64,000 bases of DNA from an uncultured Chloroflexia bacterium. Its GTDB lineage: Bacteria > Chloroflexota > Dehalococcoidia > DSTF01 > JALHUB01. The stretch spans positions 1,011,380 through 1,075,379 of the forward strand of contig CAWIGJ010000003.1 in NCBI GenBank assembly GCA_963835655.1, in the 5' to 3' direction. Made by a program: the position numbers and the translations under genes. Positions 10,781 to 64,000 of this stretch are shown here, piece by piece. Within the stretch, counting starts at the first letter, position 1, and every line of letters begins with the position of its first letter. Below the pieces are notes generated by a model. It ran no database searches. It worked only from the letters and a program-made list of their open reading frames with translations, and was not told the origin of the DNA.

Positions 10781-11554
10781 CTACTCGTCGGGCGAAACCC
10801 GCTCTGTAGGCGCCAGGGCTCGACTCTGCGCCTCCAACAGCTCGCGAATGCCCTGACTGGCCAGCCGCAGCACCTCTTCAAGCGTCGACCGCGGGAAAGG
10901 CGCGTTTTCGGCCGACCCCTGCACTTCGACGAAGTCGCCCGACGCGGTCTGCACGATGTTGAAGTCGGCCTCCGCGCGGGAGTCCTCTTCGTAGGTCAAG
11001 TCCAGCAGCGGCGCGCCCCCAACGACGCCGACGCTCACGGCAGCTATGGCATCCCGAAGGGGCATCGTCGACAGCGTGTGGCGTTCCAGTAACGTTTCGA
11101 AGGCCTGCCGGAGCGCAACGTAGGCGCCGGTGATGGCGGCGCAGCGAGTACCGGCGTCCGCCTGAATGACGTCGCAGTCGACCGTAAAAGTGCGCTCGCC
11201 CAGCAGATCGAGCCGCGTCACCGCGCGCAGCGACCGCCCGATGAGGCGTTGTATTTCCTGTGTCCGCCCGCCGACGCGTCCTTGCGCGGCTTCACGAGGC
11301 GTTCGAGTGTGCGTCGAACGCGGCAACATGCCGTATTCTGCGGTCACCCAGCCGCTGCCCTTATCCCGCAAGAACAGCGGCAGTCGATCCTCAACGCTCA
11401 CAGCGCACAGGACCACCGTCCCGCCCTGTGCGATGCGCGCCGACCCTTCCGCGTGCGGTAGATAGCCGGGCTCGATGCGCACGGGCCGCAACTCGTCAGC
11501 GCGACGTCCGTCAAGTCGTTCCACGGCTGCGCCTTTCACTCGGATCCGGAGCAA
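10781..11554 (-). CDS. rph: Ribonuclease PH
   Basis: N-terminal RLDGRRADELRPVRIE and RNase PH core motifs. The annotated N-terminal residues may be an over-extension. Confidence 0.85.
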   Translation of the reverse strand: MLRIRVKGAAVERLDGRRADELRPVRIEPGYLPHAEGSARIAQGGTVVLCAVSVEDRLPLFLRDKGSGWVTAEYGMLPRSTHTRTPREAAQGRVGGRTQEIQRLIGRSLRAVTRLDLLGERTFTVDCDVIQADAGTRCAAITGAYVALRQAFETLLERHTLSTMPLRDAIAAVSVGVVGGAPLLDLTYEEDSRAEADFNIVQTASGDFVEVQGSAENAPFPRSTLEEVLRLASQGIRELLEAQSRALAPTERVSPDE

Positions 11555-11597
11555 CGGGAGTATAGCATGCCCTTCATCGTCGGAGAAGCGGCTGATC

Positions 11598-48415: not shown

Positions 48416-49459
48416 TCAGAACTGCCTCAGAAAACGCAGGTCGTCGGCATAGAACAGGCGAATGTCCTCGATGCCGTATCGCAGCATCGCGATCCGCTCC
48501 ATCCCCAGTCCGGCCGCGAAACCGGTGTAGCGGCTGGCGTCATAACCCATGTTGGCCAGTATCTCGGGATGCACCATTCCTGCGCCCAGGATCTCTATCC
48601 ATCCTTCGCCGTTACACGTCCGGCAGCCGGTGCCGCCGCAAATCATGCAGTCGATCGCCATCTCCGCGCCGGGCTCGACGAATGGGAAGTAGTCGCAGCG
48701 GAAGCGGACTCGGCGCTCCTGCCCGAAAATCCGTTTGGCGAATTCAAACAGCGTGCCTTTGAGATCAGTGAGGCTGATGCCTTCGTCAACCGCCAGCAAC
48801 TCGATTTGCGTCTGCATCCACTCGTGCGTCACGTCCGTCGCCTCGTTACGATAGCATCGTCCAGGCACGACGACCCGAATGGGCGGCTTCGTCTTCTCCA
48901 TCACCCGCACTTGGTTCGGCGAGGTGTGCGTTCTCATCACGACGTCGTATTCGCCGCCGTGCTGGATGTCGACGTATAGGGTGTCCATCGTGTCGCGGGC
49001 GGGGTGGTCTTTGCCTATCCGCAGCGCCTCGAAGTTGTAGTAGTCCGACTCAACCTCCGGCCCTTCGACTACGGAAAAGCCCATCGATACGAAGGCGGCC
49101 AGCACGTCGCGGAGGGTCTGCGTCACGGGATGCAGCCTTCCGACGCCCTTCTCGCGCCCAGGGAGCGTCACGTCCAGTCTGCCGCTTTCAATGGCGGTCA
49201 ATCGCTCTCGTTGGAGTTGCTCCTGCCGCTCCGCCAGGGCGCTCTCCAACGCCTGCTTCAGGCCGTTTGCCGCCGCTCCCATGGTCCGCCGCTGCTCAAC
49301 AGGAAGGTCACTCAGGCTGCGGAGGACGCTGGTCAGGCGGCCCTTGCGGCCCAGCCACTCGACGCGCCACGTCTCCAGCGACGCGTCATCGCTCGTGGCG
49401 GCAAGCTCGGCTCGAGCCTGCTCTTCGATTCTGTTCAGTTCGTCTATCATGGATTGCAA
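48416..49459 (-). CDS. pheS: Phenylalanyl-tRNA synthetase alpha subunit
   Basis: Class II catalytic core motifs. Confidence 0.9.
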   Translation of the reverse strand: MQSMIDELNRIEEQARAELAATSDDASLETWRVEWLGRKGRLTSVLRSLSDLPVEQRRTMGAAANGLKQALESALAERQEQLQRERLTAIESGRLDVTLPGREKGVGRLHPVTQTLRDVLAAFVSMGFSVVEGPEVESDYYNFEALRIGKDHPARDTMDTLYVDIQHGGEYDVVMRTHTSPNQVRVMEKTKPPIRVVVPGRCYRNEATDVTHEWMQTQIELLAVDEGISLTDLKGTLFEFAKRIFGQERRVRFRCDYFPFVEPGAEMAIDCMICGGTGCRTCNGEGWIEILGAGMVHPEILANMGYDASRYTGFAAGLGMERIAMLRYGIEDIRLFYADDLRFLRQF

Positions 49460-49624
49460 GTACGCTGCTATCAGGTGGGATTAGGGGTAGAGGCAGCAGG
49501 TTATCGAAGCTATTATGATGTCACGTATTCAATCGGTCAACCGATTACGCTGCCGTTGTCCGCCTCCTGTCCGCCCAATCGTGGCACTTAGCGACAAACG
49601 ATAGTAAGATCGTTACAGGCATCC

Positions 49625-49701
49625 GGGCCGCTAGCTCAATTTGGCAGAGCAGCTGACTCTTAATCAGCCGGTTCCAGGTTCGAGTCCTGGGCGGCCTACC
49701 A
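49625..49701 (+). tRNA. tRNA-Lys (anticodon CTT)
   Basis: Cloverleaf folds as GGGCCGC/GCGGCCT acceptor, GCTC/GAGC D-stem, GCTGA/TCAGC anticodon stem with loop CTCTTAA, and a CCAGG/CCTGG T-stem with a TTCGAGT loop. CCA is encoded. Confidence 0.9.
49655..49701 (+). repeat. attL core: the 3' 47 nt of tRNA-Lys, identical to 62920-62966
   Basis: Exact 47/47 match: gactcttaatcagccggttccaggttcgagtcctgggcggcctacca. Confidence 0.85.
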
Positions 49702-49714
49702 GAAAACGAATCTA

Positions 49715-49740
49715 GAAAGGCCCCCTTCGAGGGGCCTTTC
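49715..49740. terminator. Perfect hairpin GAAAGGCCCC cttcga GGGGCCTTTC, likely a bidirectional terminator between tRNA-Lys and the first element gene
   Basis: 10-bp perfect stem. T-rich flank on the minus strand (TTTCTAGATTCGTTTTCTGG). Confidence 0.45.
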
Positions 49741-49758
49741 TGCTTACCTTCCTTAGCA

Positions 49759-49778
49759 TTTGCTAACATTTTGCTAAC
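49759..49778 (+). repeat. Two direct copies of TTTGCTAAC (plus an overlapping TTAGCA/TGCTAA inverted repeat) just inside attL; candidate integrase arm sites
   Basis: ccTTAGCAtTTGCTAACatTTTGCTAACgc. The same 9-mer pair occurs at 62768-62789. Confidence 0.5.
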
Positions 49779-50169
49779 GCTCGTGTGGGCGGTAGTGTCC
49801 CACTAGAAACGCCAAGTGCGCGGTACTCATCAGGAAGGCGGTCGCCTTCGGTCCGACCGACGTTGAACCTGTGGCCTCCCTACGGTGCATAAAGAAGAGA
49901 AGATTGGTCGTTAGGAGAGCGAGGGCGGCTCTCTCTATATCCGTTTTGTGCGAAGCGTCCGCCGCGACGACACAAGCCGCTATATAGTCAAAGGCCTTGT
50001 CCGAATGAAGTTCAGGCTTAGAGACGTTCAGTTGTTTTGCTAACTGACGGAGGGTCTCAAGCACAATCTCATTTCCAGTATTTGGGTCTGTGTCAGCATC
50101 TTCCACTTGCTTGAGCCAAGCGACAGCCTCGGCTTCCCCCAATAGATCCATTTCGCTGTTCTCATCCAT
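49774..50169 (-). CDS. Hypothetical protein (131 aa), element cargo
   Basis: ORF only. No recognisable motif. Confidence 0.4.
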   Translation of the reverse strand: MDENSEMDLLGEAEAVAWLKQVEDADTDPNTGNEIVLETLRQLAKQLNVSKPELHSDKAFDYIAACVVAADASHKTDIERAALALLTTNLLFFMHRREATGSTSVGPKATAFLMSTAHLAFLVGHYRPHER

Positions 50170-50173
50170 CTTG

Positions 50174-51316
50174 TCACCTACTGAACACTAGCGCCGCCAC
50201 CCGCTCTGCGGCGTCCTCTTGCAAGCCGGGGATAACGGCGCTGTAGACGTCGAGGGTAAAGGCGACGCTGCTATGTCCGAGCCGTTCACTGACCACTTTC
50301 GGGTGAACGCCAGCGGCCAACGCAAGGCTGGCGTGACCGTGGCGCAAATCATGCAGCCTTATCGTGGGCAGGCCAGCCGACTTCACGAGGAGCTGGAAAT
50401 GGCCCGAGAAGGACTCGGGGTTTACGGGGCCGCCGTCCGGCGCCGTGAATACCAGCGCCTCGGCGTCGGGCGCCCCTAGTCCAAGAGTCATGCGATCTTC
50501 CAGCACCCGCTTGCGGTGAGCCCTGAGAACGGCGATCGTGGTCGTGTCTAGGCTGATCTTGCGGTTGCCCCGGCCTGTCTTCGGCTCGCTCGAAAGGATT
50601 TGCCCCTTCACGCTGATAAGCGTCTGATTGACGCTGAGGTGGCCAGCCTTGAGGTCTAGGTCACACCACCTTGCCCCCAGTGCTTCGCCGCGTCTCATGC
50701 CCGTGGTGGCGAGTAGGAACAGGGGCTGGTAGTAGTAGTCACCTTCTATATGTCGGAGGAATTGGCCCAGTTGGTCAGCGTTCCATGTCCGAAGGGTATG
50801 GTTACGCTGCTGCTTTGGTGGGCTTGCAGCAGCGGCCACGTTCCTAGTCACGTCACCCCATTTGAGGGCTTCGCCCAATGCGCGGTGCAACGTCGCGTGG
50901 CAATAGCGCACCGTTCGGGGCGATAAACCGCCCTTGCCCTGGCGCCGGCCGCTTTCCAGGAGTTCAGCGTAAAGGCTATTCAACTGGCCGGGGGTGAGTT
51001 TCTGCAACGGCGTGCTACCTATTCGCGGCTTGATATAGCTTTCGACTATCAGCCGGTAGCCCTCGAGCGTTGACGCGCGGACGCTGGCCCGCGCCTGATC
51101 CAGCCATCGCGTCAGGAACATGGCCAGCGTTTCCCGTGAGGGCTCTACAAGGTTGCCCGTGGCGTAGCGCTGAAGCGTCTCCGTTAGCCCGGCCTCGCAC
51201 TCTTTCCGCGTACGAAATCCGCCCTTAGTCCGCTGCCGACGCCGGCCCTTTTCGTCGCGGCCAACGTCGAGCGTATAGCTCCAGGTCCTGCCCCTCTTGC
51301 CGACGTGTCCTTTCAT
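50174..51316 (-). CDS. Tyrosine-type phage integrase
   Basis: Catalytic box R…HDLRH…LGHSSVAFTLDVY. Adjacent to attL and tRNA. Start probably the internal Met (MKGHVGKRG) next to the upstream gene stop. Confidence 0.85.
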   Translation of the reverse strand: MKGHVGKRGRTWSYTLDVGRDEKGRRRQRTKGGFRTRKECEAGLTETLQRYATGNLVEPSRETLAMFLTRWLDQARASVRASTLEGYRLIVESYIKPRIGSTPLQKLTPGQLNSLYAELLESGRRQGKGGLSPRTVRYCHATLHRALGEALKWGDVTRNVAAAASPPKQQRNHTLRTWNADQLGQFLRHIEGDYYYQPLFLLATTGMRRGEALGARWCDLDLKAGHLSVNQTLISVKGQILSSEPKTGRGNRKISLDTTTIAVLRAHRKRVLEDRMTLGLGAPDAEALVFTAPDGGPVNPESFSGHFQLLVKSAGLPTIRLHDLRHGHASLALAAGVHPKVVSERLGHSSVAFTLDVYSAVIPGLQEDAAERVAALVFSR

Positions 51317-52221
51317 GATTGCCCTCCTCTGTGTTCTCGCGCCCATGCGCGATCCCGACAGCGCTTGTCATGGTACTCTTGCAGCCCGTGGGCGACGCCG
51401 AAGAGACGCCCGCAACCTTTGCAGAGCTGCCATCGTTTACCGGCCGCTAGGTCTTCATAGAGTTGCAGCCACATGGCAGTTTCTAAGTCGCCACAGCTCG
51501 ATCCACCTTTGATTCTGCCACCATCAATGGAGAGCCCTAGCCGAACGCTCTCCAACCGTTCCCAGAACACCGACGCCAAGCGAACCTGCTTCTCCTCTAG
51601 GTCCGGATCGTCGTCGAACTCCTCTGCGTCTCGTACCTGCTTCACGAGCCGAACGGCCTCAGAGAACTCGATGGCTTGTATAAGCAAGCGCCAGAGAATG
51701 ATCCTGACTTTGCCGTCCGCGTCCTCCAGATCGGCGAAGATGGGGCGCGGCGGTGATTGCCGAGTGTAGATAATGCCGCCCGGTAGAGGTCGCGGAAGGA
51801 CTGGCCCCCAATTGACGACGAACGCTCGCGCCTCGCGCTGGATCGCCCCGTTGAACGAGGCGTATATGGCAAGGGTTTCCGCAGAATCTTCGCCGCTCGG
51901 TGCCGACCTTTGCCCTGCGTCCTGCGCATGCTTTCCTAGCGCGGCGAAGTCGCTGTAGGGCTGCGGCGTCAGTCTGAGCGGCTCATACCCCTCGCGGCTG
52001 AAGTCCACGAGCGCGCCGTCAAACTGTAACGCGACGGGGTCGCCGCCGACGCGCCAGTGCTGCCTGTTTCCCTTCGGCCACCAAAAGACCGTGAAAGTGT
52101 CGTCGCGTTTCTGCATTTCGGCCCCTATCTCGGCGGAAATCGGCTTGGCCTCGTCTATTATTGCACGGTACCATACCAGTGTCAAGCGATTAGAAGGGGA
52201 TAGGAGCAGAAAAAATGACAC
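51313..52221 (-). CDS. Hypothetical protein with a C-terminal CGNR-like zinc-finger (CxxC…F…C-R-x-R…HR)
   Basis: C-terminus RWQLCKGCGRLFGVAHGLQEYHDKRCRDRAWAREHR resembles the zf-CGNR signature. The N-terminal ~35 aa may be an over-extension. Confidence 0.4.
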   Translation of the reverse strand: MSFFLLLSPSNRLTLVWYRAIIDEAKPISAEIGAEMQKRDDTFTVFWWPKGNRQHWRVGGDPVALQFDGALVDFSREGYEPLRLTPQPYSDFAALGKHAQDAGQRSAPSGEDSAETLAIYASFNGAIQREARAFVVNWGPVLPRPLPGGIIYTRQSPPRPIFADLEDADGKVRIILWRLLIQAIEFSEAVRLVKQVRDAEEFDDDPDLEEKQVRLASVFWERLESVRLGLSIDGGRIKGGSSCGDLETAMWLQLYEDLAAGKRWQLCKGCGRLFGVAHGLQEYHDKRCRDRAWAREHRGGQS

Positions 52222-52439
52222 AGAAGAATGCGATGGCGGTAGACGTTCGCCGGCTGCCGCCGACGGTCACCGTTCCCGAAGCGGGTAGCTTGCTGGGAAT
52301 CAGTCGCGGGTCCGCTTACGAGGCCGCCCGTACGGGGCAAATCCCGGCCCTGAGAATCGGGGCGCGCCTCGTGGTGCCTACGGCGCAGTTGCTCCGGCTT
52401 CTAGAGGGTGTGCCCACCGAGCCGAAGCCGGGCGCCTGA
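52215..52439 (+). CDS. Excisionase/AlpA-family HTH DNA-binding protein
   Basis: VTVPEAGSLLGISRGSAYEAARTGQIPALRIGARLVVPTAQLLRLLEG matches the excisionase-family HTH pattern. Divergent from the integrase. Confidence 0.65.
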   Translation: MTQKNAMAVDVRRLPPTVTVPEAGSLLGISRGSAYEAARTGQIPALRIGARLVVPTAQLLRLLEGVPTEPKPGA

Positions 52440-52549
52440 GCCGACAAGGGCCGTGAGCACGTTGACTGAACTCCGTCCTGCGCGCGCTTTGTGCCCGCGC
52501 TGCCAATTTCGGTTCGAGCTTCTTTCGGAAGTCCGGGTAGAGGATAGCG

Positions 52550-53527
52550 TTGCCTGCCCCAAGTGCCATGTCGTGGTTTGCCCCGAACGGGAGCCGCTCG
52601 ACCAAAGTTGGTGGGCTTGGGCGAATAGCAGAGGGGCAGACCGTGAATCTTGACGACATTCTCCCGCTTCTCGATTCGCCCGCCGGCGATCCTTTCGGCG
52701 GGAAGCCGGTTGCGCCGGACCGTCACACGTGGTTTTTCTGCCCCGTTCATGCGGATGGCAGCAAGCACGGGCGCCGCTCGGCAACCTTTCACCCCCGCTA
52801 TGGCCTGACCTGTTTCGCCGGCTGCGAAAGGCGCGACATCATTGCCGCGCTCCAAAAGCGCGGCGGCGTTCATCCCGCCCATACACCGAGCGACAGCAGC
52901 CCCGCGCATCGCTCGAGGTCAAAAGCGATCCCTGGCCGGATCGTCGCCCGCTACCCGTACCCCGACGAAAGGGGCCAGTTGCTGTATGAGGCCCTACGCA
53001 AGGAGACGGCTGACGGCAAGACATTCCTTTTGCGGCGGCCTAACGGCATGGGCGGCTGGATTTGGAACATTGACGGCATGCGCCGTGTCCTCTATCGGCT
53101 TCCCGAACTCCTGGCGGCTGACCCTAGCGCCTTTGTTTTCATCTGTGAGGGCGAGAAGCGCGTTGATGCGCTTGCTCGGCTCGGCCTCACGGCGACAACA
53201 AACGTAGGCGGCGCCGGGAAGTGGAAACCCGCCTGTAACGACTATCTTCGCCGCCGGCGCGTCGTGATCCTTCCCGACAACGATCCGCCAGGAGCCGAAC
53301 ACGCTGAGCAAGTGGCGCGCTCACTTATGGGCGTCGCCGCTGAAGTCCGCGTGATCGTGCTGCCCGGCCTGCCTTTCAAGGGCGACATCATTAACTGGCT
53401 TGCTGCTGGCGGCAACCGCGAAATACTCCTAGCCCTGGCAGAGCGCCCGCCGACGGAGCGGCCATCTTCCGCCGACTTCCCGAAAGCCGTCCGGGTGAGC
53501 GTCCTTAACGCCGCAGGAGTTGCCTGA
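52550..53527 (+). CDS. Phage/plasmid primase (CHC2 zinc finger plus Toprim)
   Basis: CPVHADGSKHGRRSATFHPRYGLTCFAGC (CHC2). Toprim glutamate in ICEGEKRVDAL and DxD in ILPDNDPPG. Confidence 0.75.
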   Translation: MPAPSAMSWFAPNGSRSTKVGGLGRIAEGQTVNLDDILPLLDSPAGDPFGGKPVAPDRHTWFFCPVHADGSKHGRRSATFHPRYGLTCFAGCERRDIIAALQKRGGVHPAHTPSDSSPAHRSRSKAIPGRIVARYPYPDERGQLLYEALRKETADGKTFLLRRPNGMGGWIWNIDGMRRVLYRLPELLAADPSAFVFICEGEKRVDALARLGLTATTNVGGAGKWKPACNDYLRRRRVVILPDNDPPGAEHAEQVARSLMGVAAEVRVIVLPGLPFKGDIINWLAAGGNREILLALAERPPTERPSSADFPKAVRVSVLNAAGVA

Positions 53528-54750
53528 TGCCTCAGCCTAGCACGCGGGAGGAAGTTGCCATCGTCGCATTCGGTGACGGCTCGCACACCGACCGGGAGCA
53601 AGTTCTGGAAGTGGTAAGCCGCTGGCTGAGAATCGGCGACCTCGAGGCGGTCGACGTCATCATGGCAACCGCTATCGCAATCTACCTGCCGGGCGATCCC
53701 CTTTGGCTTCACGTTGTAGCTCCACCTGGAGGCACCAAGAGCGAGTTACTGCGGTCGCTACAGGGGCCAAGGGTCGTCAGCATTTCCACCATGACGCCGC
53801 AGACGCTCATCTCGGGCCTCAAGGGGCACGGTGAGGACATCGACCTGCTGCCTAAGCTCGATGGCAAACTGCTTATCATCAAGGACTTCACGTCCATTCT
53901 TTCAAAGAAGTCAGAGGACCAGGCGGCAATCTTCGCCGACTTGCGCGAAGCATATGACGGCTATCTTGAAAAGTCCTTCGGCTCCGGCGTCGGGATAAAG
54001 GGCTACAATGCCAGTTTCGGACTCATTGCGGGCGTCACGCCCGCGATAGACATGTTCCGGACTGTCCATTCCTTGCTCGGCGAGCGCTTCCTTCGGGTCA
54101 ATGTTGTTGGCGATGAACAGGGCGCCGTCACGCGCTCCAGTGAGCTTGAGGGCCAAGAGAAGACAATGCGCCAAGAGCTCGGCGCCGCTGTCGGCGGCTA
54201 TCTCACGCATGCCGGCGAATGGGTTGACCCCGACGTGCTGGTAGAAGAGCGTTTCCTTCAGCAGCTCCGGGCACTGGCACAGCTCACGGCTGCCCTGCGT
54301 TCCCCCGTCGCTCGCGACCGTCAGCACCACGTCCTCTATTCGCCTCAGCGTGAGATAGGTACGCGGCTCGTTAAGCAGCTTCAGAAACTTGGCAAGGCGC
54401 TCGCCAACTGGCGGGAACGCCTGATAGTCAGCGCTGAAGATTACGCTACCGTTCGTCGCGTCGCGCTTGACTGCATACCGAGCGGACGAATTGCCGCCCT
54501 GCGGCCGCTCCTAGAGGCGGATACGTGGCTATCGACAAAACAGGTAGGGCAAGCCGCTAACCAGCATACCGACACCGCAAACGAGCATCTTCATGACATG
54601 TGGATGCTCCATCTCCTACAACGCGAAGGTGACGCCGCCTATTCATGGGCAGTAGCGGATGAAACCCGCCAACTGCTAGGAAGGGCGGCTATCGACCTAC
54701 GGACGCAAAACACCCTGAGTAGGCTAGATGAGGCAATGGAATGCCCTTAA
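53527..54750 (+). CDS. Primase-associated P-loop NTPase / replicative helicase-like protein
   Basis: Walker-A-like VVAPPGGTKSE and Walker-B-like KLLIIKDF. Start overlaps the primase stop (ATGA), suggesting translational coupling. Confidence 0.45.
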   Translation: MPQPSTREEVAIVAFGDGSHTDREQVLEVVSRWLRIGDLEAVDVIMATAIAIYLPGDPLWLHVVAPPGGTKSELLRSLQGPRVVSISTMTPQTLISGLKGHGEDIDLLPKLDGKLLIIKDFTSILSKKSEDQAAIFADLREAYDGYLEKSFGSGVGIKGYNASFGLIAGVTPAIDMFRTVHSLLGERFLRVNVVGDEQGAVTRSSELEGQEKTMRQELGAAVGGYLTHAGEWVDPDVLVEERFLQQLRALAQLTAALRSPVARDRQHHVLYSPQREIGTRLVKQLQKLGKALANWRERLIVSAEDYATVRRVALDCIPSGRIAALRPLLEADTWLSTKQVGQAANQHTDTANEHLHDMWMLHLLQREGDAAYSWAVADETRQLLGRAAIDLRTQNTLSRLDEAMECP

Positions 54751-54811
54751 TTGTTAAGACTCAAGGACGCAAAACACCCTGTGCAAGCACGAGGACAAAT
54801 ATAATTTGTCC
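54701..54811 (+). promoter_or_regulatory. Origin-like region: two 17-bp direct repeats GGACGCAAAACACCCTG (54701-54717 and 54765-54781) followed by the AT-rich palindrome GGACAAATATAATTTGTCC (54793-54811)
   Basis: Read directly. Located at the 3' end of, and just after, the helicase-like gene. Confidence 0.5.
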
Positions 54812-55091
54812 TTTTAGAACGTCGGCGGCTACTGGGGGTACTTTGCGCCCCTGGCCTACTGCCTGCCAACAAGCGCGTGTGCTACCCGCTCCGGCCACAA
54901 AATCACGCGGCGACAGCCGCCCAAGCGGTAGGCTCAGTGGATGCGGCAGAACGAAGGCCCTGCCATGACTGCCACCAAAGAGGACTCGGCCCGTGAGCAA
55001 AGCGTTAGCAGGCAAGCGGGATCGAATCTGGAAAAGGCCCAGCAGCGGATTGGTAGTCAGCGGGATTACACACTAACGGAGTCTGACTAGG

Positions 55092-55631
55092 ATGGCCGTC
55101 AAAGCCGAAATAGAGCCCGCCACAGGCGCGCTAGAGCCGCGATCTATCTCGCCGGCGCAACGTCAGCAGCGCCAGCTCGCAGCCGTGAAGACGGGTCTGT
55201 ATGTAAAAGCCCCTGCTGGCCTCAGGCTCAGGTCGCGAAGAGTGCGCCGCTTGGTAAGCAAAATGCGCGCGGTCATGCCGTGGCTTGACGATAGCGACTT
55301 GCCAGCTTGTAGGGCGTGGGCAGAGTTCGAGATTCTAGGCGCTACTGCCTTCGCCGATCTCATTGAGCGCGGCATGACAAACGACAATGGCGATCCGCGC
55401 CGGTTGCTGGGCGAATTCAGGCAACTTCGGCAGGCGCAACTCGGCTATGAGCGCGGTCTAGGAATGACGCCAGCCGCCCGCATGTCCTTGCGGGTAGGCG
55501 ACAGCCGGGCGCGTTCGTTCGATAGGGGCGGCGTTGCCGCATCTGCTGAGGACGTGGCAGCGCTTGAAACGCGCGTCCTGGCGCGTCTAGGGCCGCAAGG
55601 AACGGCGGCAGAGGTGAACAGTGGAGACTAA
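55092..55631 (+). CDS. Terminase small subunit (P27-family-like)
   Basis: 179 aa. Overlaps the terL start by 11 nt. Sequence character fits the P27 small terminase family. Confidence 0.55.
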   Translation: MAVKAEIEPATGALEPRSISPAQRQQRQLAAVKTGLYVKAPAGLRLRSRRVRRLVSKMRAVMPWLDDSDLPACRAWAEFEILGATAFADLIERGMTNDNGDPRRLLGEFRQLRQAQLGYERGLGMTPAARMSLRVGDSRARSFDRGGVAASAEDVAALETRVLARLGPQGTAAEVNSGD

Positions 55632-57000
55632 CGACGCCCTGGCGCAATCGCCCTTGTTGTGGGCGCTGGAGCGGCTTCACCGCCTCAACGGACGGCCTTT
55701 CACGCTCTATGACTACCAGCTTCACGTCCTGGCAAACCGCTCGCCGCGTGTGCTGGTCCTGAAGTCGCGACAAGTCGGGCTATCGACAGCGGCGGCGATC
55801 AGGGCGGCTCACGAATTGCTGTTCAACGAACGGGCGATGGTGCTGGTAGTGAGCCGCGATCAGGACGCCGCCGGCCACTTCCTTGCGACCGTCCTTGACA
55901 TTCTCGACTCACTTGCTGAGCCGCCTGACTTCACGCGGCGCGGCGTCTTTGAGGCGCAACTAAAGAACGGATCACGCATCCTGTCGCAAGCGGCGACAGG
56001 CAAGGCAGGGCGCGGCGTTAGGGCGACACTCGTGGTCTGTGATGAATTCGCCTTTATGGATTATGACGCGGCGATCTTCCGCGCCGTCAGCCCGACGATA
56101 GCGCGCGGCGGGCGGCTAATCGTGATCAGCACGCCCAACGGTCAAAACAATCTCTTCTTCAGACTGTGGCACGGCAACGAAGGCGGCGATTGGTCAAGGC
56201 ATCGCGTCCACTGGAGCGACTGCCCGGCGTTTGATCCGGCATGGTTTGAGCGGGAACGTCCGAACTATACCGCCCGCGACTGGGCGCAAGAGTTCGATTT
56301 GGACTTCGTTGCGAGTGGCGGCGCTGCCTTCCGTCCTGAGGACGTTGACGCCATGGCCGATGGATGGCAGGGCTATCAGCCGCGCAAGGATGATGAGCGG
56401 TTTGCGATCTATGTCACGGGCGTTGACGTCGGCCGCAAGCATGACGCGACCGTGCTAATCACCCTGAGGACTGACAGGCGACCGTTCCAGATCGTCGCGT
56501 TCGAGCGGCTAGTGGGCTGTCCCTACGCTCAGCAGCAGGCCTTGATCGAGGCGCGGGCCGAAGCCTACGGCGGCAAGGTGATAGTCGAGAGCAACGGGAT
56601 CGGCGACCCGGTTCTCGAGGCGCTGCATTGCTACGCCGATCCCTTCGTAACGACTCAACAGAGCAAGGCGCACGGCCTGACGCGGCTCATTCAACTGGTA
56701 GAGCAGCGCCAGATCAAGGGCGACATTCCCGAGTTGCTGTCAGAACTTCGCTCCTACGAATGGGAGGATTCGCGGCTCAAAACAGACTGTGTAATGGCCC
56801 TGATGCTCGCTTGCACGGGCATCGTCGAGTATTACGTATCGTTCCAAGAGCTTCAGGACATGATGGACGAAGGCTCGCGCGGGCGGGGAACTATCGTCAC
56901 AAACTCTGACGGCACGCGCTGGTTGAATTCGAGTTGCGTTGAGGACGACGCCCGAGCGGATGAAGCGGGCGCGTTCCATAGCATCCCGACAGTCTTTTGA
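55621..57000 (+). CDS. Terminase large subunit (ATPase plus RNaseH-like nuclease)
   Basis: Walker A region VLKSRQVGLST, Walker B LVVCDEFAF, and the nuclease Asp cluster YVTGVDVGRKHDATVL. Confidence 0.75.
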   Translation: METNDALAQSPLLWALERLHRLNGRPFTLYDYQLHVLANRSPRVLVLKSRQVGLSTAAAIRAAHELLFNERAMVLVVSRDQDAAGHFLATVLDILDSLAEPPDFTRRGVFEAQLKNGSRILSQAATGKAGRGVRATLVVCDEFAFMDYDAAIFRAVSPTIARGGRLIVISTPNGQNNLFFRLWHGNEGGDWSRHRVHWSDCPAFDPAWFERERPNYTARDWAQEFDLDFVASGGAAFRPEDVDAMADGWQGYQPRKDDERFAIYVTGVDVGRKHDATVLITLRTDRRPFQIVAFERLVGCPYAQQQALIEARAEAYGGKVIVESNGIGDPVLEALHCYADPFVTTQQSKAHGLTRLIQLVEQRQIKGDIPELLSELRSYEWEDSRLKTDCVMALMLACTGIVEYYVSFQELQDMMDEGSRGRGTIVTNSDGTRWLNSSCVEDDARADEAGAFHSIPTVF

Positions 57001-57028
57001 CACTGCCGGGGTAGGAAAGGAAACGGAA

Positions 57029-57391
57029 ATGGCGACAGGAACCTCAAACGAGAAAGTCAGGGAGCACCTGAAGACGCTGAGTGAACAGATGCGCCTTCGC
57101 TACAACGTGCTGGAGGACCGGCGCGCGGCTGAAGAGGCGGGCAACTCAGTGATTCCGCCAGGGCTGCCAGGAGAAACATTCGGCTTCAAGACGACAACGC
57201 GAATCGACGCGCCGGCCATCATGAAAGTTGACCCGAAGGCTAACGCTGCCATGAAGCAGCGGCTCCAGAACGTGTTGGGCGTTGCGAAGCTGCTTGGTGT
57301 TCCCGAAGACAAGGCGCGAGAACAGTTCGAGCGGGAACAGGCAGGCCAGCGGCCGCTCGATAACACCGTGCCGGGATTCAAGGGAGTGTAA
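57029..57391 (+). CDS. Hypothetical phage protein (120 aa)
   Basis: RBS GGAAAGGAAACGG. ATG at 57029 follows terL. Confidence 0.45.
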   Translation: MATGTSNEKVREHLKTLSEQMRLRYNVLEDRRAAEEAGNSVIPPGLPGETFGFKTTTRIDAPAIMKVDPKANAAMKQRLQNVLGVAKLLGVPEDKAREQFEREQAGQRPLDNTVPGFKGV

Positions 57392-57394
57392 ACC

Positions 57395-57715
57395 ATGCAA
57401 ACGGGAGACGTACACCGCGTCGATTTTGCCAACGTTCGGCGCTACGCCGACAGCGAACTCGACCGCTGCTGGAGTTGCCGCAACTTGGCGCGCTGTTCTG
57501 GCGATTGTCACTCGCACGCCGAGCCGCCCGTCGCTGTAAAGGTTAACGGCTCAGCGGATGCGCGGGCGAGACAGCAACTCGATGAAGTCCTGACGGTCGG
57601 CAAGGGCGCCGGTCTTAGTGAAGCACAAGTCCTCGAGCAAAGGCTGAGGCAGCTTCAGGGCAAGCCGCCGGTTCCCGATGGAACTTTCGGCTTCAACGGG
57701 GGTCACGCCCAATGA
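57395..57715 (+). CDS. Hypothetical Cys-rich protein (CWSC…C…C…H)
   Basis: ORF in the structural/packaging module. Possible zinc-binding. Confidence 0.4.
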   Translation: MQTGDVHRVDFANVRRYADSELDRCWSCRNLARCSGDCHSHAEPPVAVKVNGSADARARQQLDEVLTVGKGAGLSEAQVLEQRLRQLQGKPPVPDGTFGFNGGHAQ

Positions 57716-57930
57716 CCCCGCTCATCGAGGAATTGGCGGCGCGCGTCGAAAACGGCCAAATCCGCCTATCGCGACTGCCGCCGGGCGAAACGCGCGATCA
57801 AGTGGCGGCGCGACTGGAGAAGGATCGCGGCGACTTGCAGCGCTGGCTCGACGTAGAAGAGCTTGAAAGAAACAGCCGGGCGAACAGCGCTGAGCCCCTG
57901 CCGTGGGACTTGCGACGGAAGGAACTGTGA
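57712..57930 (+). CDS. Hypothetical protein (72 aa)
   Basis: Overlaps the preceding gene by 4 nt. Confidence 0.35.
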   Translation: MTPLIEELAARVENGQIRLSRLPPGETRDQVAARLEKDRGDLQRWLDVEELERNSRANSAEPLPWDLRRKEL

Positions 57931-58140
57931 ATCGCGTTAGGTGCGTGAAGTGAACGAAGTGAATTTCGGCTCGGACAGGTGTGGCTTCACCTCCTTGTTG
58001 TCTGCCTGTCCGGTCGGCGTGTCGGGCCGGGGTGTGTGACGCGCGACTTCCATCGCGTTGCCATAACGAGCTTGACCTCCTTGAGCTCCCCGGTCCGGAG
58101 CGCTTCAAGTCAGGGTGACGCAATTTGAAAGGATAGCCCA

Positions 58141-59748
58141 ATGGCAGACGATTCAACCCTGAGTATCCTAATTCAGGCTGAGGACCAAGCCTCGAGCGCC
58201 CTTCAAAGCGTCGGCGGCTCCCTTGACGACCTTCAATCAAAGGCGCAAGGCGTCACTGACGCCGCAGGCGACACGGCGGGTGCCATGTCTGACGTTGGGG
58301 ACACGGCGGCAGATGCCGGTTCAAGCCTTGAGGATGCGGGCGGGGCTGCGGCTGACACCGGGACAAACCTTGAGGATGCGGGTAGTTCTGCCGACAGTGC
58401 GGGGATGAGCATCGGCGACCTGACCTCACAGGTTGGTGATCTGGCGGGCGGTCTAAGCGGCCTCACGCCCGAAATGGGAACGTTAACCGCTGGATTAGGC
58501 GGGCTATCTGGGGCAGTGGCCGGACCAGCGGGTATAGCAGCGGCTATTGGCGCTGGAGCGGCGGCCTTCATCGGGCTAGGCGAAGCGGGCGGTCAGTGGG
58601 CAACTGAGGTGATGACCGTTAAAGACATCACCAATATGAGCACGACTGACGTAACGAAGTGGGGCCTTGCGCTGGAAGACGTGGGCGGCGACATGAATCA
58701 GCTCGCTACGATCTCCTACATGCTGGAGCGCCGATTGCAAACGCAAGTAGATGCCGAGAACGCAGGGCAGACGGGTAGTTTGGCGTTGGCGAAAGCGATG
58801 GAGGACACCGGAACGGCCTACAAGGATGCCGAAGGGAACATGCTCGACATGGGTACTATCCTGCCCAATCTGCTAACGAATCTGACAGCCATGACGGATA
58901 AAACGCTGGCCGCTAATGATGCCACGGTAATTCTCGGACGCGGCGGGCGTGAAATGCTAGTGGTACTTCAAGAATGGCCTGATCTGGCGGCCGCCGTCAA
59001 CCGGCAGACTGCCGAGTTGGATACCACGACTGAAGAAGGGGCGAAACACGCCATCGAGTACAACATCGCCATGACGGACATGAAAGACGAGCTGATCATG
59101 CTCGATCAGGACGTTTTACCCGCGTTTACCACATTCCTAGAGGCCCTACCCGTCGGCTTCCATATGGCTGGCGACGCCATGCACCTTCTGTTTAGAGAGA
59201 TCGTGGACGGAGCGCCGTTTTTGCGCTCGATGGTCGATACAGTCTCGGCCGGAGCTGACATACTACACGGCGACTTCAAGGGCGCCGTAGACGACGGAAA
59301 GAACGCCCTGCGAGATATGATTCCCGGCTATAACATGGCGCAGGACGCTATTGCCGGCGTCAACGATGAAACCAAGGATTTGTCTAGTTCGCTCGACGCC
59401 CAATCTGAAAGCCTGAAATCCTCGACTCAGCAATGGGCCGACTACAACTCAGAGATTGAAGCGGCTCTCAGCATGGGCATGACGCTGGAAGAGGCCGTGA
59501 CCAGCGTAAGTCATCCCGGTGTAGACATCACCGGCCAAGAGGTGAACGTTCCTACCTATGACTACGGCGGCTTTGTGCCCGGGGCGCCGGGTGCGCCGCA
59601 ACTTGCAGTTGTGCATGGCGGCGAGACGGTGACGCCAGCGGGCCAACAGCAGTTCGGCACCTTCCAGAACTTCGGTAATATCAACGTCTACCCCCAGAGC
59701 GGCGGCATGGCCGACATGATGGCAGAAATAGCGAAGCAGGTGAGCTAA
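58141..59748 (+). CDS. Tape-measure-like / tail structural protein (Gly/Ala/Asp-rich repeats)
   Basis: N-terminal degenerate repeats DxGxxxxDxG followed by Gly-rich hydrophobic segments, then a helical region. Position is after the terminase genes. Confidence 0.35.
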   Translation: MADDSTLSILIQAEDQASSALQSVGGSLDDLQSKAQGVTDAAGDTAGAMSDVGDTAADAGSSLEDAGGAAADTGTNLEDAGSSADSAGMSIGDLTSQVGDLAGGLSGLTPEMGTLTAGLGGLSGAVAGPAGIAAAIGAGAAAFIGLGEAGGQWATEVMTVKDITNMSTTDVTKWGLALEDVGGDMNQLATISYMLERRLQTQVDAENAGQTGSLALAKAMEDTGTAYKDAEGNMLDMGTILPNLLTNLTAMTDKTLAANDATVILGRGGREMLVVLQEWPDLAAAVNRQTAELDTTTEEGAKHAIEYNIAMTDMKDELIMLDQDVLPAFTTFLEALPVGFHMAGDAMHLLFREIVDGAPFLRSMVDTVSAGADILHGDFKGAVDDGKNALRDMIPGYNMAQDAIAGVNDETKDLSSSLDAQSESLKSSTQQWADYNSEIEAALSMGMTLEEAVTSVSHPGVDITGQEVNVPTYDYGGFVPGAPGAPQLAVVHGGETVTPAGQQQFGTFQNFGNINVYPQSGGMADMMAEIAKQVS

Positions 59749-59757
59749 CACGGGGCA

Positions 59758-59985
59758 ATGTCTATGGCCTTAGTGCGCTGTGGCCGCCCGTACTGTGGCG
59801 GCGCAATCTTGCCCGGCGAGTCCGCCTGTCTCCTTTGCGGCCGCTGCCCCCGCAAACTTGAGCCTATCCGCCTTCCCGTTCGGCGCCGCGAAAAGACGTT
59901 CTCAGTGCTGGCGGCGATAATGGTAGAGGTCCCAGGTGCCTTCCGTTCGCTGAGGGCGGCTGTACCCGAGGGGGTAGACTTCTAG
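59758..59985 (+). CDS. Small zinc-ribbon protein (CxxC…CxxC)
   Basis: CGRPYCGG…CLLCGRC. Confidence 0.35.
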   Translation: MSMALVRCGRPYCGGAILPGESACLLCGRCPRKLEPIRLPVRRREKTFSVLAAIMVEVPGAFRSLRAAVPEGVDF

Positions 59986-60098
59986 TAGCACGTCGCGCCC
60001 GGGCGCTCTAGGTACTGACCGACCGCCTTCTTTCCGACCCCCAAAGCTAGGAACCGCTCGTTTTGCCGCCAGGATCGAAATCTGGGCGTTTCCCGCGC

Positions 60099-60128
60099 TT
60101 GACAGGCGCTAGACACCGGCGTACTATC
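60099..60128 (+). promoter_or_regulatory. Near-consensus sigma70 promoter (TTGACA, 18 nt, TACTAT) upstream of the second recombinase
   Basis: cgcTTGACAggcgctagacaccggcgTACTATcc. Confidence 0.4.
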
Positions 60129-60252
60129 CGCCGTGAAAGACGACGGCGCCCGCTTGGGCGGACGCCGCCTGAGCCAAAGCCTGCTGTTACCAGGCCCGGC
60201 CCGCGCAAAGGATACCATGTCGGACCCCTGATCGCAGCAGCGAAGGGGGTTT

Positions 60253-61143
60253 TTGATGATCACGGTAAAGGATGCAGTGAGCCGCTACATTCAAAGCCTC
60301 TGCGCCAGCGGCTACTCCGAGTTCACTACGATCAGCGCGACCTCTATTCTAGGGCAGTTCGCAACCTACGCCGATGGTGCAGCCTTAGCCGATGTCGGTG
60401 ATCGGGCCATCGCTTGGCTGGCTCTTCGCCGCCGACAGGTTCGGCGTAACACGCTGTGTGCCAACTCCTCACACGTTAAGCAATTCCTCAAGTTCTGCAA
60501 GGACAACGGCTGGATCGAGTCCAATCCCGTTGCCGACATGAAGCGACCATGTGCAGAACAGGTAGTCACACAACCGCTGAGTGATAGGGAAATCCTCGCG
60601 CTATGCGAGGCGGCAACGGGTTGGCAGCGGACGGCTATCGTTTTACTGCTAGGAACCGGGATGCGGATCGGCGAGCTCGCCGCCCTGCGCTGGCAGGACA
60701 TTTACGATCAATACGTGGTAGTGCATGGGAAGGGTTCAAAGCAGCGCACGCTCGCTCCGGGCAGGCGAGCTATGGAGATGCTGCGCGAGTTGCCACAGGC
60801 CGGCGATAAGGTATTCCCCTGTACCTATGGCGGCATAAAGACGGTTCTGCGGCGCCTCTCCGTTCGCAGCGGTATCTACTTCCATCCGCATCAGTTCCGG
60901 CATACGTTTTCCCATCGCTTCCTCGAGGCTGGCGGCTCATTTGAAGAGCTGTCAGAGATTCTGGGCCATGCCAACCTGAACACAACGGCTGTCTATGTCC
61001 GGGCATTCCGGCGGGATCGAGCGTTAGCGGCGCAACGCCGCTGGAATCCGGCTGATGCGCTCTTTGGAATTCCCGACGATGGTGACGACGGCGCCAGCAA
61101 CGTTGTCGCGTTTCATCCGAGAGTCGCAGTCGGGGCGCGATAG
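60253..61143 (+). CDS. Second tyrosine recombinase (XerC/D-like)
   Basis: R…HQFRHTFSHRF…LGHANLNTTAVYV catalytic box. Confidence 0.8.
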   Translation: MMITVKDAVSRYIQSLCASGYSEFTTISATSILGQFATYADGAALADVGDRAIAWLALRRRQVRRNTLCANSSHVKQFLKFCKDNGWIESNPVADMKRPCAEQVVTQPLSDREILALCEAATGWQRTAIVLLLGTGMRIGELAALRWQDIYDQYVVVHGKGSKQRTLAPGRRAMEMLRELPQAGDKVFPCTYGGIKTVLRRLSVRSGIYFHPHQFRHTFSHRFLEAGGSFEELSEILGHANLNTTAVYVRAFRRDRALAAQRRWNPADALFGIPDDGDDGASNVVAFHPRVAVGAR

Positions 61144-61480
61144 AGGGCGTTGACCCGCTCGACGTACCGTTGTCACTGAGTAGATAATCGCGACGTTAGG
61201 CCGGGGGTTTGTGTTGTGCGGCAACCCGCGACAGTCGTAAACGGGTCTATGAGAATGGCACCGGGTCCCACCTTAAGTCCCGTGGCTGGGGCAACGCAAG
61301 GATGCGATCACATTTCCAGGAGGCAGTCTGTCAAGAGATTGGGAGCGATTCTATGCGCACGGCCTACCCCCGGCCGACGCATTCCAATGATCGAAAGGAG
61401 ACAGTTGTGGAATCTGAAGATGTTTACGAGACTTTAGCAGCCCTCAAGAAAACAGCAGGCTGATAGGGGCGAGCAGGGGT

Positions 61481-61837
61481 CTACTGCAGCTTCCCGTCCT
61501 TGTCGCTTACCGTGTAGGTGTCTGACTCGACGATGTTCTGGCCCGCTTGGTCTGGGGCGAAATCGCAGGTGACTACCCACATGTCGGCGTCGGGCCTATA
61601 AGAGGCGCTGACGCATCTTACAAAGTTAGCTCCCGCCGGAGCGGGCATATTGCTCACCTGCTGTTGAGCCAGCCGCTCAATGTCTTGTGCAGTGAACCTG
61701 GCCTTGGGCGCGGCGGTGGGCGCGGGCGTGGGAATTGTTTGCGTCGATTGCCACGGACCGGTCACATACAGGATCGCACCGGCCGCGATACCAGCGCCGA
61801 CCAGCAGTGCGACTACGGGGATTATCCACTGCTTCAT
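61481..61837 (-). CDS. Membrane-anchored or secreted hypothetical protein (118 aa), element cargo
   Basis: N-terminal signal anchor, Pro/Thr linker, and a Cys-containing C-terminal domain. Confidence 0.4.
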   Translation of the reverse strand: MKQWIIPVVALLVGAGIAAGAILYVTGPWQSTQTIPTPAPTAAPKARFTAQDIERLAQQQVSNMPAPAGANFVRCVSASYRPDADMWVVTCDFAPDQAGQNIVESDTYTVSDKDGKLQ

Positions 61838-62008
61838 GGTACGTCTCCTAACAGGAGTCTGACGAGGATAGGCGCATTCTACACCCGTGAGTCAACGTAT
61901 CGCGTGCGCGTCGTTCTGCAACCCGATTTGCAACAAGAATCTTGACGCTCGTGGTATCCTTTCACTATCTCAGGACCTCCGCCAATCCCATCAACAGGGA
62001 CACAACAT

Positions 62009-62662
62009 ATGCCCTGGCCATTCCGACGAAGGCTACCAGATAGCGATTTCGCAAACGTCATTAACTTGATCCGTCATCTCCAGACCCAGGGAGCACTCCA
62101 GGATTTTACCGGCGAGCTTTCAATCACGGCCATGGCCATCGCGGACGGCGCTGGTCTACAGGAAGATGGAGTCTTCGCCCGTGGGAGGGCATACGTAACT
62201 GATCCTCACCGCGCCGCCACTCATCTTCTTCCCGCATTCGAAAAGACGGTTACGATGGCCGAGTCCATGGCCAGCGAACACAACTCATATCCGGCCCCAC
62301 AAACACCCAAGAAAGCGCTTGAGGCCTACAATTCCTGGACGGATTTCCTAACCTTATTTGTCACCAGAGCAAGACTAGAACTTGCCTGTTATACGGAATG
62401 GGTCGAGAATCCCTCTCTTGATGTCAGTCAGCGTTCCGCCGCGCTCAACCAGGCCACAGACGGCTCATTAGCCCTCGCCGTGACCCGTCTCAAGGACCTC
62501 GTCCGCTATGCGGGAATCAGCACAGACGCTTGGTGGTCTCTCAACTGTGCCGCGTTCAACGACGCCCGAAGCCGGGTCGATCTACCTCCCTTGACCGAGA
62601 CCGACTTCCGCGCCAGGTACCTCTCCATGGTCGCTGGAAGCCGACCTCGATTCTTCGAATGA
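62009..62662 (+). CDS. Hypothetical protein (217 aa), element cargo near attR
   Basis: ORF only. Confidence 0.4.
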   Translation: MPWPFRRRLPDSDFANVINLIRHLQTQGALQDFTGELSITAMAIADGAGLQEDGVFARGRAYVTDPHRAATHLLPAFEKTVTMAESMASEHNSYPAPQTPKKALEAYNSWTDFLTLFVTRARLELACYTEWVENPSLDVSQRSAALNQATDGSLALAVTRLKDLVRYAGISTDAWWSLNCAAFNDARSRVDLPPLTETDFRARYLSMVAGSRPRFFE

Positions 62663-62767
62663 CATTGCCAAGACAACGAGACATACCATGACCGCCTTGA
62701 CCGGCGACAGTACGCATGCGCCGGGCATGACCTTGCAGACAGCGAATAACTGGGGCGTTTTGCTAAC

Positions 62768-62789
62768 GGATTTGCTAACAAACCGTTTG
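62768..62789 (+). repeat. Two direct copies of TTTGCTAAC inside attR, in the same orientation as those at attL
   Basis: cgTTTTGCTAACggaTTTGCTAACaaacc. Confidence 0.5.
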
Positions 62790-62919
62790 TAATTGGCCGT
62801 CAGCGGTCATCATGGCGGGGTAGTCATGGGTCTAGCATCGGGCCGGGCGCAGATACGAATTGGCGCTAGAATTGGCACTAACCCGCAACGTTTAGTATGC
62901 TTTATCATGGCTGGCCTAG

Positions 62920-62966
62920 GACTCTTAATCAGCCGGTTCCAGGTTCGAGTCCTGGGCGGCCTACCA
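62920..62966 (+). repeat. attR: 47-bp duplicate of the tRNA-Lys 3' end (no tRNA 5' half present)
   Basis: Exact match to 49655-49701. The upstream sequence lacks an acceptor or D-arm. Confidence 0.85.
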
Positions 62967-62983
62967 GTGAAGGATCGCTGGCC

Positions 62984-63068
62984 GGGGAAGTGTCGGAACT
63001 GGCAGACGAGCATGACTTAGGATCATGTGCCGCAAGGCGTAGGGGTTCGAGTCCCCTCTTCCCCACCA
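62984..63068 (+). tRNA. tRNA-Leu (anticodon TAG)
   Basis: Acceptor GGGGAAG/CTTCCCC, anticodon stem CATGA/TCATG with loop CTTAGGA, long variable arm TGCCGCAAGGCGT, T-arm AGGGG-TTCGAGT-CCCCT, CCA encoded. Confidence 0.85.
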
Positions 63069-63148
63069 GTCGGGTCGCGTGATGGTTTGCGCGAAACTCC
63101 CGAGACAGAGATAATCAGGAAACTCCAGAGAGGGATAGGGAGAACAAG

Positions 63149-64000
63149 TTGGGCACTCTTCTTGAGGTGAAGAACCTAAAGACATACTTCTTCACCGATG
63201 ACGGTGTGGTCAAAGCGGTAGACGGCATCAACTACGACCTGCAGGAAGGCGAGACCATCGGCCTCGTCGGCGAAAGCGGCTGCGGGAAGAGCGTTTCCGC
63301 GCTCTCGCTCCTGCGCCTCATCCAGTCACCACCCGGCCGCATCGTCGACGGCGAAGTCTGGTTCGAAGGCGAAAACCTCCTGAAGGTCGACGAGGACGAG
63401 ATCCGGCACGTGCGTGGCAACCGGATCGCCATGATCTTCCAGGAGCCGATGACATCCCTGAACCCCGTTCTCACCATCGGCCGCCAACTCACCGAGGCGC
63501 TTGAACTGCACATGCACATGGACCGGCGGGCCGCGACGAACCGCGCTATCGAGTTGCTGGATATGGTGGGAATCCCTTCGGCAACGTCGCGAATCAAGGA
63601 TTACCCCCACCAGTTCTCCGGCGGCATGCGTCAGCGTGTGATGATTGCCATGGGTCTTTCGTGCAACCCGCGTCTGCTTCTCGCTGACGAGCCGACTACC
63701 GCGCTCGATGTAACCATCCAGGCGCAGATCCTGGAGCTTATGGCCAAGCTGAGCAGCGAGTTCGGGACAGCCGTTATCATCATCACCCATAACCTGGGCG
63801 TGATAGCTCGCTACGCCCAGCGCGTGAACGTAATGTACGCCGGCAAGATCGTCGAATCGTCGACCTCCCGCGAAGTCTACGGCAACCCCAAGCACCCTTA
63901 TACCCTGGGTTTGCTGAAATCGGTGCCGCGGCTCGACCAGGTCCGCAAGAGCAGGCTGAACCCTATTGAGGGCTTCCCGCCGGACCTCGTGCACATGCCG
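63149..64000 (+). CDS. ABC transporter ATP-binding protein (oligopeptide/dipeptide OppD/DppD type); 3' end off the window
   Basis: TTG start after RBS AGGGAGAA. Walker A GESGCGKS, signature FSGGMRQR and Walker [13 protein letters not shown]. Confidence 0.85.

Follow-up and report, generated by a model that had tools for sequence, protein, structure and literature searches.

Paired 9-mers flanking a tRNA-Lys core as probable arm-type sites of an island-encoded lambda-type tyrosine integrase

That heterobivalent integrases use paired arm sites is textbook knowledge. In the lambda system, the N-terminal domain of Int binds arm sites that lie far from the crossover, with DNA-bending proteins as accessory factors (PMC4880445; PMC4111918), and the attP of approximately 240 bp includes an inverted site, in a different position, that is used for excision (PMC4111918). 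The mycobacteriophages L5 and Giles carry pairs of arm-type sites in direct orientation on either side of the attP common core, a terminator separates the core from one of the site pairs, and phage Pixie has a 47-bp core in tRNA-Lys (PMC3203893). The mycobacteriophage motif differs between related integrases, and these differences have been proposed to depend on residues of the N-domain (PMC3203893; PMC10865867).

In this study, we examine short direct repeats at the ends of a 13.3-kb island that lies in a 64-kb window (the whole stretch of DNA that was analysed). Four paired copies of the 9-mer GTTAGCAAA are very probably the arm-type binding sites of the island's own lambda-type (heterobivalent) tyrosine integrase. 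The sites are non-random and conserved in position, and both arms change together across related elements; from the sequences we infer that the integrase N-domain is what binds them. The arrangement is an ordinary one, already known in kind, and not a new mechanism; what is new here is the uncultured high-GC lineage and its own motif.

The ends of the island are marked by the following features.
49625..49701, + strand: tRNA-Lys(CTT), target gene of the integration, complete at the left junction
49655..49702, + strand: left att core, a 48-bp identity block running from the anticodon stem-loop to the 3' end plus one base
62920..62967, + strand: right att core, a displaced copy of the 3' part of tRNA-Lys
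49714..49741, no strand assigned: GC-rich hairpin, terminator-like on both strands, separating the core from the proximal repeat pair

The 3' part of the tRNA gene forms a 48-bp perfect direct repeat (49655-49702 and 62920-62967), which therefore bounds the 13.3-kb island (49655-62967). The identity block at 49655-49702 begins 4 nt ahead of the CTT anticodon, and the crossover of the island would fall within GACTCTTAATCAGC (49655-49668). In the related loci L015 and L018, identity between the two copies of the core is limited to GCTGATTAAGAGTC, which would confine the crossover to the anticodon stem-loop, where we place it. The 48-bp tRNA-Lys core is like that of Pixie, whereas the lambda core is 15 bp long. 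The hairpin that follows the reconstituted tRNA-Lys is supplied by the island, and L015, L017 and L018 have at the same position a GC-rich hairpin whose stem differs in sequence; the mycobacteriophages, like the island, have a stem-loop terminator between the core and one pair. An Rfam scan of 49400-63300 returned nothing except two tRNAs, and a structured-RNA explanation for the repeats was set aside on that ground.

The copies of the repeat, and one inverted block beside them, are arranged as follows.
49770..49778, - strand: int-proximal (P'-like) putative arm site 1, GTTAGCAAA
49759..49767, - strand: int-proximal putative arm site 2, GTTAGCAAA, starting 11 bp past site 1
62771..62779, - strand: int-distal (P-like) putative arm site 1, GTTAGCAAA, 140 bp from the right core
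62759..62767, - strand: int-distal putative arm site 2, GTTAGCAAA, starting 12 bp past distal site 1
50036..50044, - strand: fifth exact GTTAGCAAA, unpaired, approximately 330 bp from the core and within a 395-bp insertion
62785..62793, + strand: possible third distal site, inverted, GTTTGTAAT, adjoining the distal pair on the core side

Searched as TTTGCTAAC, which is GTTAGCAAA on the int-coding strand, the motif has five exact matches in the 64-kb window, all on the + strand and starting at 49759, 49770, 50036, 62759 and 62771. The expected number is 0.13, and among 100 shuffles with dinucleotide content preserved none gave five copies and none gave more than one. Inside the 13.3-kb island, the five copies compare with 0.03 expected by second-order Markov simulation. 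Commonness of the 9-mer was a check suggested by the first-pass annotation, and the 50.7 kb of the window outside the island hold no exact copy and no one-mismatch copy. One-mismatch copies number five, all within the island (54993, 55254, 57425, 58869 and 62344), against approximately 1.6 expected inside it, and the zero outside it compares with approximately 2.7 expected; the excess inside the island is mild and could be due to chance.

The proximal pair has a period of 11 bp and the spacer AT, and 56 bp separate it from the left att core. The distal pair (62759-62779) has a period of 12 bp and the spacer GGA, and lies 140 bp from the right core. The first-pass annotation had described the left pair as two copies 11 bp apart, about 57 bp inside attL (49759-49778), which agrees with our measurement, and the palindrome TTAGCA-TT-TGCTAA (TTAGCATTTGCTAA) that it noted at the left end is present at 49753-49766, adjoining the pair. 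The right pair that it reported is real and in the same orientation, but its place is 62759-62779 and not 62768-62789, its period is 12 and not 13 bp, and its distance from the core is 140 and not approximately 130 bp. The four copies it counted do all share one orientation, but the fifth exact copy at 50036 had been overlooked. A further candidate for a third proximal site, at 49739-49747, was rejected: it has two mismatches, shares bases with the terminator stem and shows no convincing conservation.

Measured from the anticodon loop, the inferred exchange point, the proximal pair lies at approximately 100-118 bp and the distal pair at approximately 146-166 bp. The repeats differ from the core in sequence, flank it on both sides, and stand tens to approximately 150 bp from the crossover. 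Pairs of short repeats likewise flank the core in the mycobacteriophages (L5, Giles, Pixie, and Clusters K and L), although their consensus sequences differ from GTTAGCAAA and they are full phages whereas the present element is a 13.3-kb island. In lambda too, arm sites lie on both sides of the core, and its attP of approximately 240 bp is comparable to the approximately 285 bp of the island; however, lambda has five sites (P1, P2, P'1, P'2 and P'3) where the island has four clear ones in two pairs, lambda uses an inverted site for excision where the four island sites are all direct, and no IHF or Fis sites could be assigned in the island.

The distal arm also contains conserved blocks between the core and the pair. 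One block, (C)ATTGCAAAC(GG), stands immediately outside the distal pair and is the reverse complement of the GTTTGCAAT variant of the motif; it is found at 62785-62793 in the window, at approximately 148-156 in L015, at approximately 154-162 in L165 and at 281-289 in L167. On the opposite strand, the block at this position reads GTTTGCAAT in L015 and L167 and GTTTGCAAC in L165. The inverted block at 62785-62793 may be a third, inverted Int site (compare P1 of phage Pixie) or a site for an accessory protein.

The genes that bear on the identity of the binding protein are these.
50174..51316, - strand: tyrosine integrase (int), 380 aa, with arm-binding, SAM-like core-binding and catalytic domains; the presumed 9-mer binder
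51313..52221, - strand: ORF302, 302 aa, no family match, overlapping the int start in ATGA
52215..52439, + strand: HTH_17 protein, 74 aa, candidate excisionase/directionality factor, divergent from the ORF302-int operon
60253..61143, + strand: second tyrosine recombinase, 296 aa, without an arm-binding domain, near the distal island end

The integrase matches Pfam PF14657 (Arm-DNA-bind_4) with 37.2 bits against a cut-off of 22.3, over residues 21-64 of a 390-aa ORF, and Phage_integrase with 62.7 bits against a cut-off of 27.1; SAM_3 is also above its cut-off, and the match to the PHROG 1 integrase has an E value of 1e-69. In an alignment of 34 homologues, R208, K246, H322-x-x-R325, H348 and Y358 are invariant, and we read these as the catalytic residues. 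An AF2 model of the protein (mean pLDDT 85) places strands at residues 3-8, 11-20 and 26-34 and a helix at 37-53, and continues after residues 3-53 with a core-binding helical bundle and then the catalytic domain. Among PDB structures, Foldseek ranks full-length lambda Int (1z1b, 367 aligned columns) first and Tn1549 Int next. At the level of family matches and predicted fold, we regard a three-domain, lambda-type build of the integrase as established. Sequence identity to lambda Int, the best fold match, is nonetheless only approximately 19%, and identity to the mycobacteriophage integrases is only approximately 32%. The integrases of Tn916 and Tn1549 belong to the same Pfam arm-binding family (PF14657), and the catalytic and core-binding regions of Tn1549 Int give some of the best matches in both sequence and fold; those elements, however, are conjugative transposons with a loose choice of target, whereas the island integrase targets a tRNA gene and the gene is reconstituted.

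Other genes of the island encode a primase-like protein and a large terminase, with weak matches to a small terminase and to a tape-measure protein, and no capsid gene was detected among the island ORFs scanned. A capsid gene is present in the contigs of L015 and L165, which are approximately 8-10 kb long; L015 also has a weak Terminase_4 match, and L018 has a weak Terminase_4 match together with a primase. The island and its relatives have the appearance of phage satellites or of prophages in decay. At the position of ORF302, L015, L017, L018 and L165-L167 have fast-evolving ORFs of 185-254 aa, with similarity to ORF302 detectable only in L017 (35% identity). A counterpart of the second recombinase, 33% identical, is found at the equivalent position in L164.

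The closest integrases to that of the window come from metagenome contigs, and a scan of GTDB representatives gave no integrase more than 55% identical over a substantial match; a search for the exact integrase sequence turned up no record. In L015 and L016 (Int 80% identical), int is followed by cacgagcGTTAGCAAAccGTTAGCAAAtgctaag, then a hairpin, then tRNA-Lys(CTT). At the equivalent place, L017 (Int 80% identical) has GTTAGCAAAgtGTGAGCAAA, with GTGAGCAAA as the second copy, and L018-L020 (Int 62% identical) have GTTAGCAAAtGTTAGCAAA. In all of these loci (L015/L016, L017 and L018-L020), a GTTAGCAAA-type pair thus follows the int stop codon and precedes the terminator and tRNA-Lys. Beyond the core, L015 has an exact distal pair and L018 a degenerate one, GTTTGCAAAtgcGTTTGCAgc (GTTTGCAAA and GTTTGCAGC), each at 117 bp. 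The comparison with att flanks of homologous elements, which had been proposed as a check on the repeats, therefore finds the 9-mer there; neither this check nor the count outside the island refutes the arm-site reading. GTTAGCAAA also stands beside GTTTGCAAA in L164, at a tRNA-Leu. The L164 integrase (60% identical; 11360-11590) adjoins tRNA-Leu(TAG), a gene that is the immediate neighbour of tRNA-Lys(CTT) in both the window and L018, so adjacent tRNA targets seem to have been swapped; close relatives appear to have changed between neighbouring targets while keeping the arm motif family.

Conservation among close relatives is by itself weak evidence for function, because the elements with 80%-identical integrases are approximately 87% nucleotide-identical across the proximal arm. 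The repeats could then be non-functional relics, for instance local duplications that were carried along with the att region. More distant elements make this explanation extremely improbable: the motif and its layout persist at 26-42% Int identity, where the flanks are unalignable, and across phyla and different tRNA targets, and the two arms of each element switch motif together.

The distant elements fall into several motif classes. Pairs of the GTTAGCAAA type follow int in L002, L005, L030, L031 and L033, which are Dehalococcoidia-type contigs with integrases approximately 40% identical to that of the window; L030 and L031 have distal pairs with a 12-bp period at 119 bp from the core. The GTTTGCAAT class (GTTTGCAA(T/A)) occupies both arms of L165 and is also found in L166 (at tRNA-Pro), L167, L021 and L006. 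The GGTGCCAAA class is represented by L040, at tRNA-Thr, with a proximal pair of period 11 and a distal pair of period 12, and by L039, in which two pairs stand 229 bp apart in an attP-like locus that is apparently unintegrated. The closest cultured-phage integrases are those of the Bacillus phages BMBtp16 (39% identical) and Athena (37%), both of which have GTGGTCA pairs just past the int stop codon, with a second set approximately 215 bp further on in BMBtp16. The motifs GTTGCCAA, GGTGGCAAT and GGTAGAC were seen in the proximal arm only.

Elements with Int identities of 26-80% carry the window's motif, or a related 8-9-mer, as a tandem pair that usually stands just past the int stop codon; they were found in Actinomycetota and Dehalococcoidia, in viral contigs and in Bacillus phages. 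At 26-60% identity the layout is kept as a pair between int and the core (period 10-12 bp) and a second pair approximately 107-140 bp beyond the core, and no element in which both arms can be seen lacks this far-side pair. The one layout is common to four motif classes (L015, L018, L030, L031, L040, L165, L039, L113 and L161). The motif varies among lineages and the two arms of any one element match, which is what a single protein reading both arms predicts. Together with the arm-binding domain and the lambda-Int-like predicted fold, this conserved layout supports the first-pass reading of the repeats as integrase arm sites.

The protein that reads both arms could be one other than Int. The 9-mers might be bound by the HTH_17 protein (52215-52439), or by another DNA-binding protein of the element such as ORF302, instead of by the Int N-domain. 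Directionality factors also bind tandem direct repeats with approximately one-turn spacing in att arms. In lambda, the Xis sites X1, X1.5 and X2 are in the P arm (PMC4880445). The window has an HTH_17 gene, as do most of the related elements. We consider this alternative quite unlikely, because copies of the motif flank the core on either side, whereas the lambda Xis sites are confined to the P arm, and because the motif is linked to int despite unrelated cargo: in most lineages examined the pair directly follows int, the sole gene common to all of them. Moreover, L068, L088, L112 and L113 have int-adjacent pairs but no HTH_17 homologue detectable by tblastn. Nor does the identity of the HTH_17 protein correlate with the motif, the protein of L032 being 62% identical with a different motif and that of L030 38% identical with the same motif; tracking of the motif with this protein was accordingly dismissed.

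A role unrelated to recombination, with proximity to att incidental, is very improbable. The pairs might be a packaging (pac) site for the small terminase, given the large terminase and weak small-terminase match of the island, or an operator or roadblock that regulates int, as arm-type sites are also reported to do in KplE1 (PMC2951348). The same kind of pair, however, occurs in elements with unrelated cargo and always flanks the core. The sites also lie downstream of int, not at a promoter, and no sigma-70-like promoter was found in 49550-50250, which led us to discard a promoter role for the repeats.

The motif was also sought in IMG/VR with the pattern GTTAGCAAA-N(1-3)-GTTAGCAAA. At periods of 11-12 bp, 15 of the 44 pairs directly adjoin the 3' end of an int homologue encoded on the same strand; the tRNA genes at these loci are tRNA-Met and tRNA-Ser. 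In L113, L103 and L155, two pairs lie 194-196 bp apart in one uninterrupted attP; with L039, the uninterrupted attP-like layouts have pairs 194-229 bp apart. At a period of 10 bp, 79 matches were obtained, in AT-rich phages with no integrase nearby, and these were rejected as relatives and treated as a separate phenomenon. Tandem GTTAGCAAA in integrase-free phage regions means that the sequence alone is not diagnostic of arm sites. An example is L053 (6321-6339), where GTTAGCAAA-N-GTTAGCAAA is intergenic; approximately 75 similar IMG/VR loci have the same 10-bp period, and the contigs are AT-rich phages of 35-73 kb, mostly from one sample. The 10-bp-period repeat looks like an unrelated operator-like repeat.

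If the Int N-domain reads the arm sites, its residues might be expected to relate to the motif. Identity over the whole N-domain does not follow the motif: L018, with GTTAGCAAA, and L021, with GTTTGCAAT, are both 48% identical to the window's domain, and Dehalococcoidia integrases at approximately 40% identity share the motif of the window. At the level of strand 3, R(R/K/Q)Q goes with GTT(A/T)GCAA, while RRRIRY, ERSRRF and PRRQVA go with more divergent motifs, both in few independent lineages; this link between strand 3 and the motif, drawn from aligned residues, is only suggestive. The form GTT(A/T)GCAA(A/T) is common to integrases that are only 26-40% identical, from Actinomycetota, Dehalococcoidia and assorted phages, and the tRNA targets of these integrases include Lys, Met, Ser, Pro and Leu.

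With Int as the reader of the arm sites, the excised element would have an attP of approximately 285 bp, in the order int, two sites, 56 bp with the terminator hairpin, the 48-bp core, 140 bp and two further sites, all four sites pointing one way. The N-terminal domain of Int (residues approximately 3-53, three strands and a helix) would grip the 9-mers with high affinity. Through their core-binding and catalytic domains, the same protomers would occupy core-type sites of lower affinity around the tRNA-Lys(CTT) anticodon stem-loop, the presumed place of strand exchange. Spacings of 10-12 bp would set the sites of a pair approximately one helical turn apart. By analogy with lambda, host nucleoid proteins would bend the arms and allow Int to bridge arm and core, and in excision the 74-aa HTH_17 protein would probably add to arm bending.

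The functional ends of the island are thereby fixed as an attP of approximately 285 bp, made up of the 48-bp tRNA-Lys core and two arm pairs, and this is the stretch to clone for testing or reusing the integrase. For this mostly uncultured integrase clade, the layout also supplies an annotation rule: a tandem 8-9-mer with a period of approximately 11 bp, usually just past the end of int, with a matching pair on the far side of the core at a distance of 107-140 bp.

The model leaves the fifth copy, 330 bp from the core, unaccounted for. This copy lies in a region that sets the window apart from its closest relatives.
49788..50182, - strand: 395-bp insertion relative to L015, L016 and L017, parting int from its arm pair
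49774..50169, - strand: ORF131, an orphan of 131 aa, between int and the left pair

The first 9-mer of L015 and L017 contains the stop codon of int. In the window, int has been moved away by the insertion, and it is ORF131 that now terminates in the stop codon (TAG) inside the first 9-mer, proximal site 1 (49770-49778). The fifth exact 9-mer (50036-50044) is inside ORF131 and contains the Leu codon TTA; the chance of an exact match to the 9-mer within 395 bp is approximately 1 in 2000. A search of 5.8 billion proteins with ORF131 returned only the protein itself, and no fetched locus contained a match, which ruled out an explanation of the fifth copy through homologues of this orphan.

One speculative account would join the fifth copy to the arm specificity shared by distant integrases. 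Small satellite-like islands such as this one might be mobilised in trans by the Int/Xis of an unrelated co-resident phage, and the fifth copy would then record an event in which Int directed the capture of DNA at the junction of int and arm. We think this unlikely; if the shared specificity is functional, trans mobilisation by a phage reading the same arm code would be possible. Unrelated small ORFs are present at the same int/arm junction in L164 (69 aa) and L165 (149 aa), so the junction may be an insertion hot spot.
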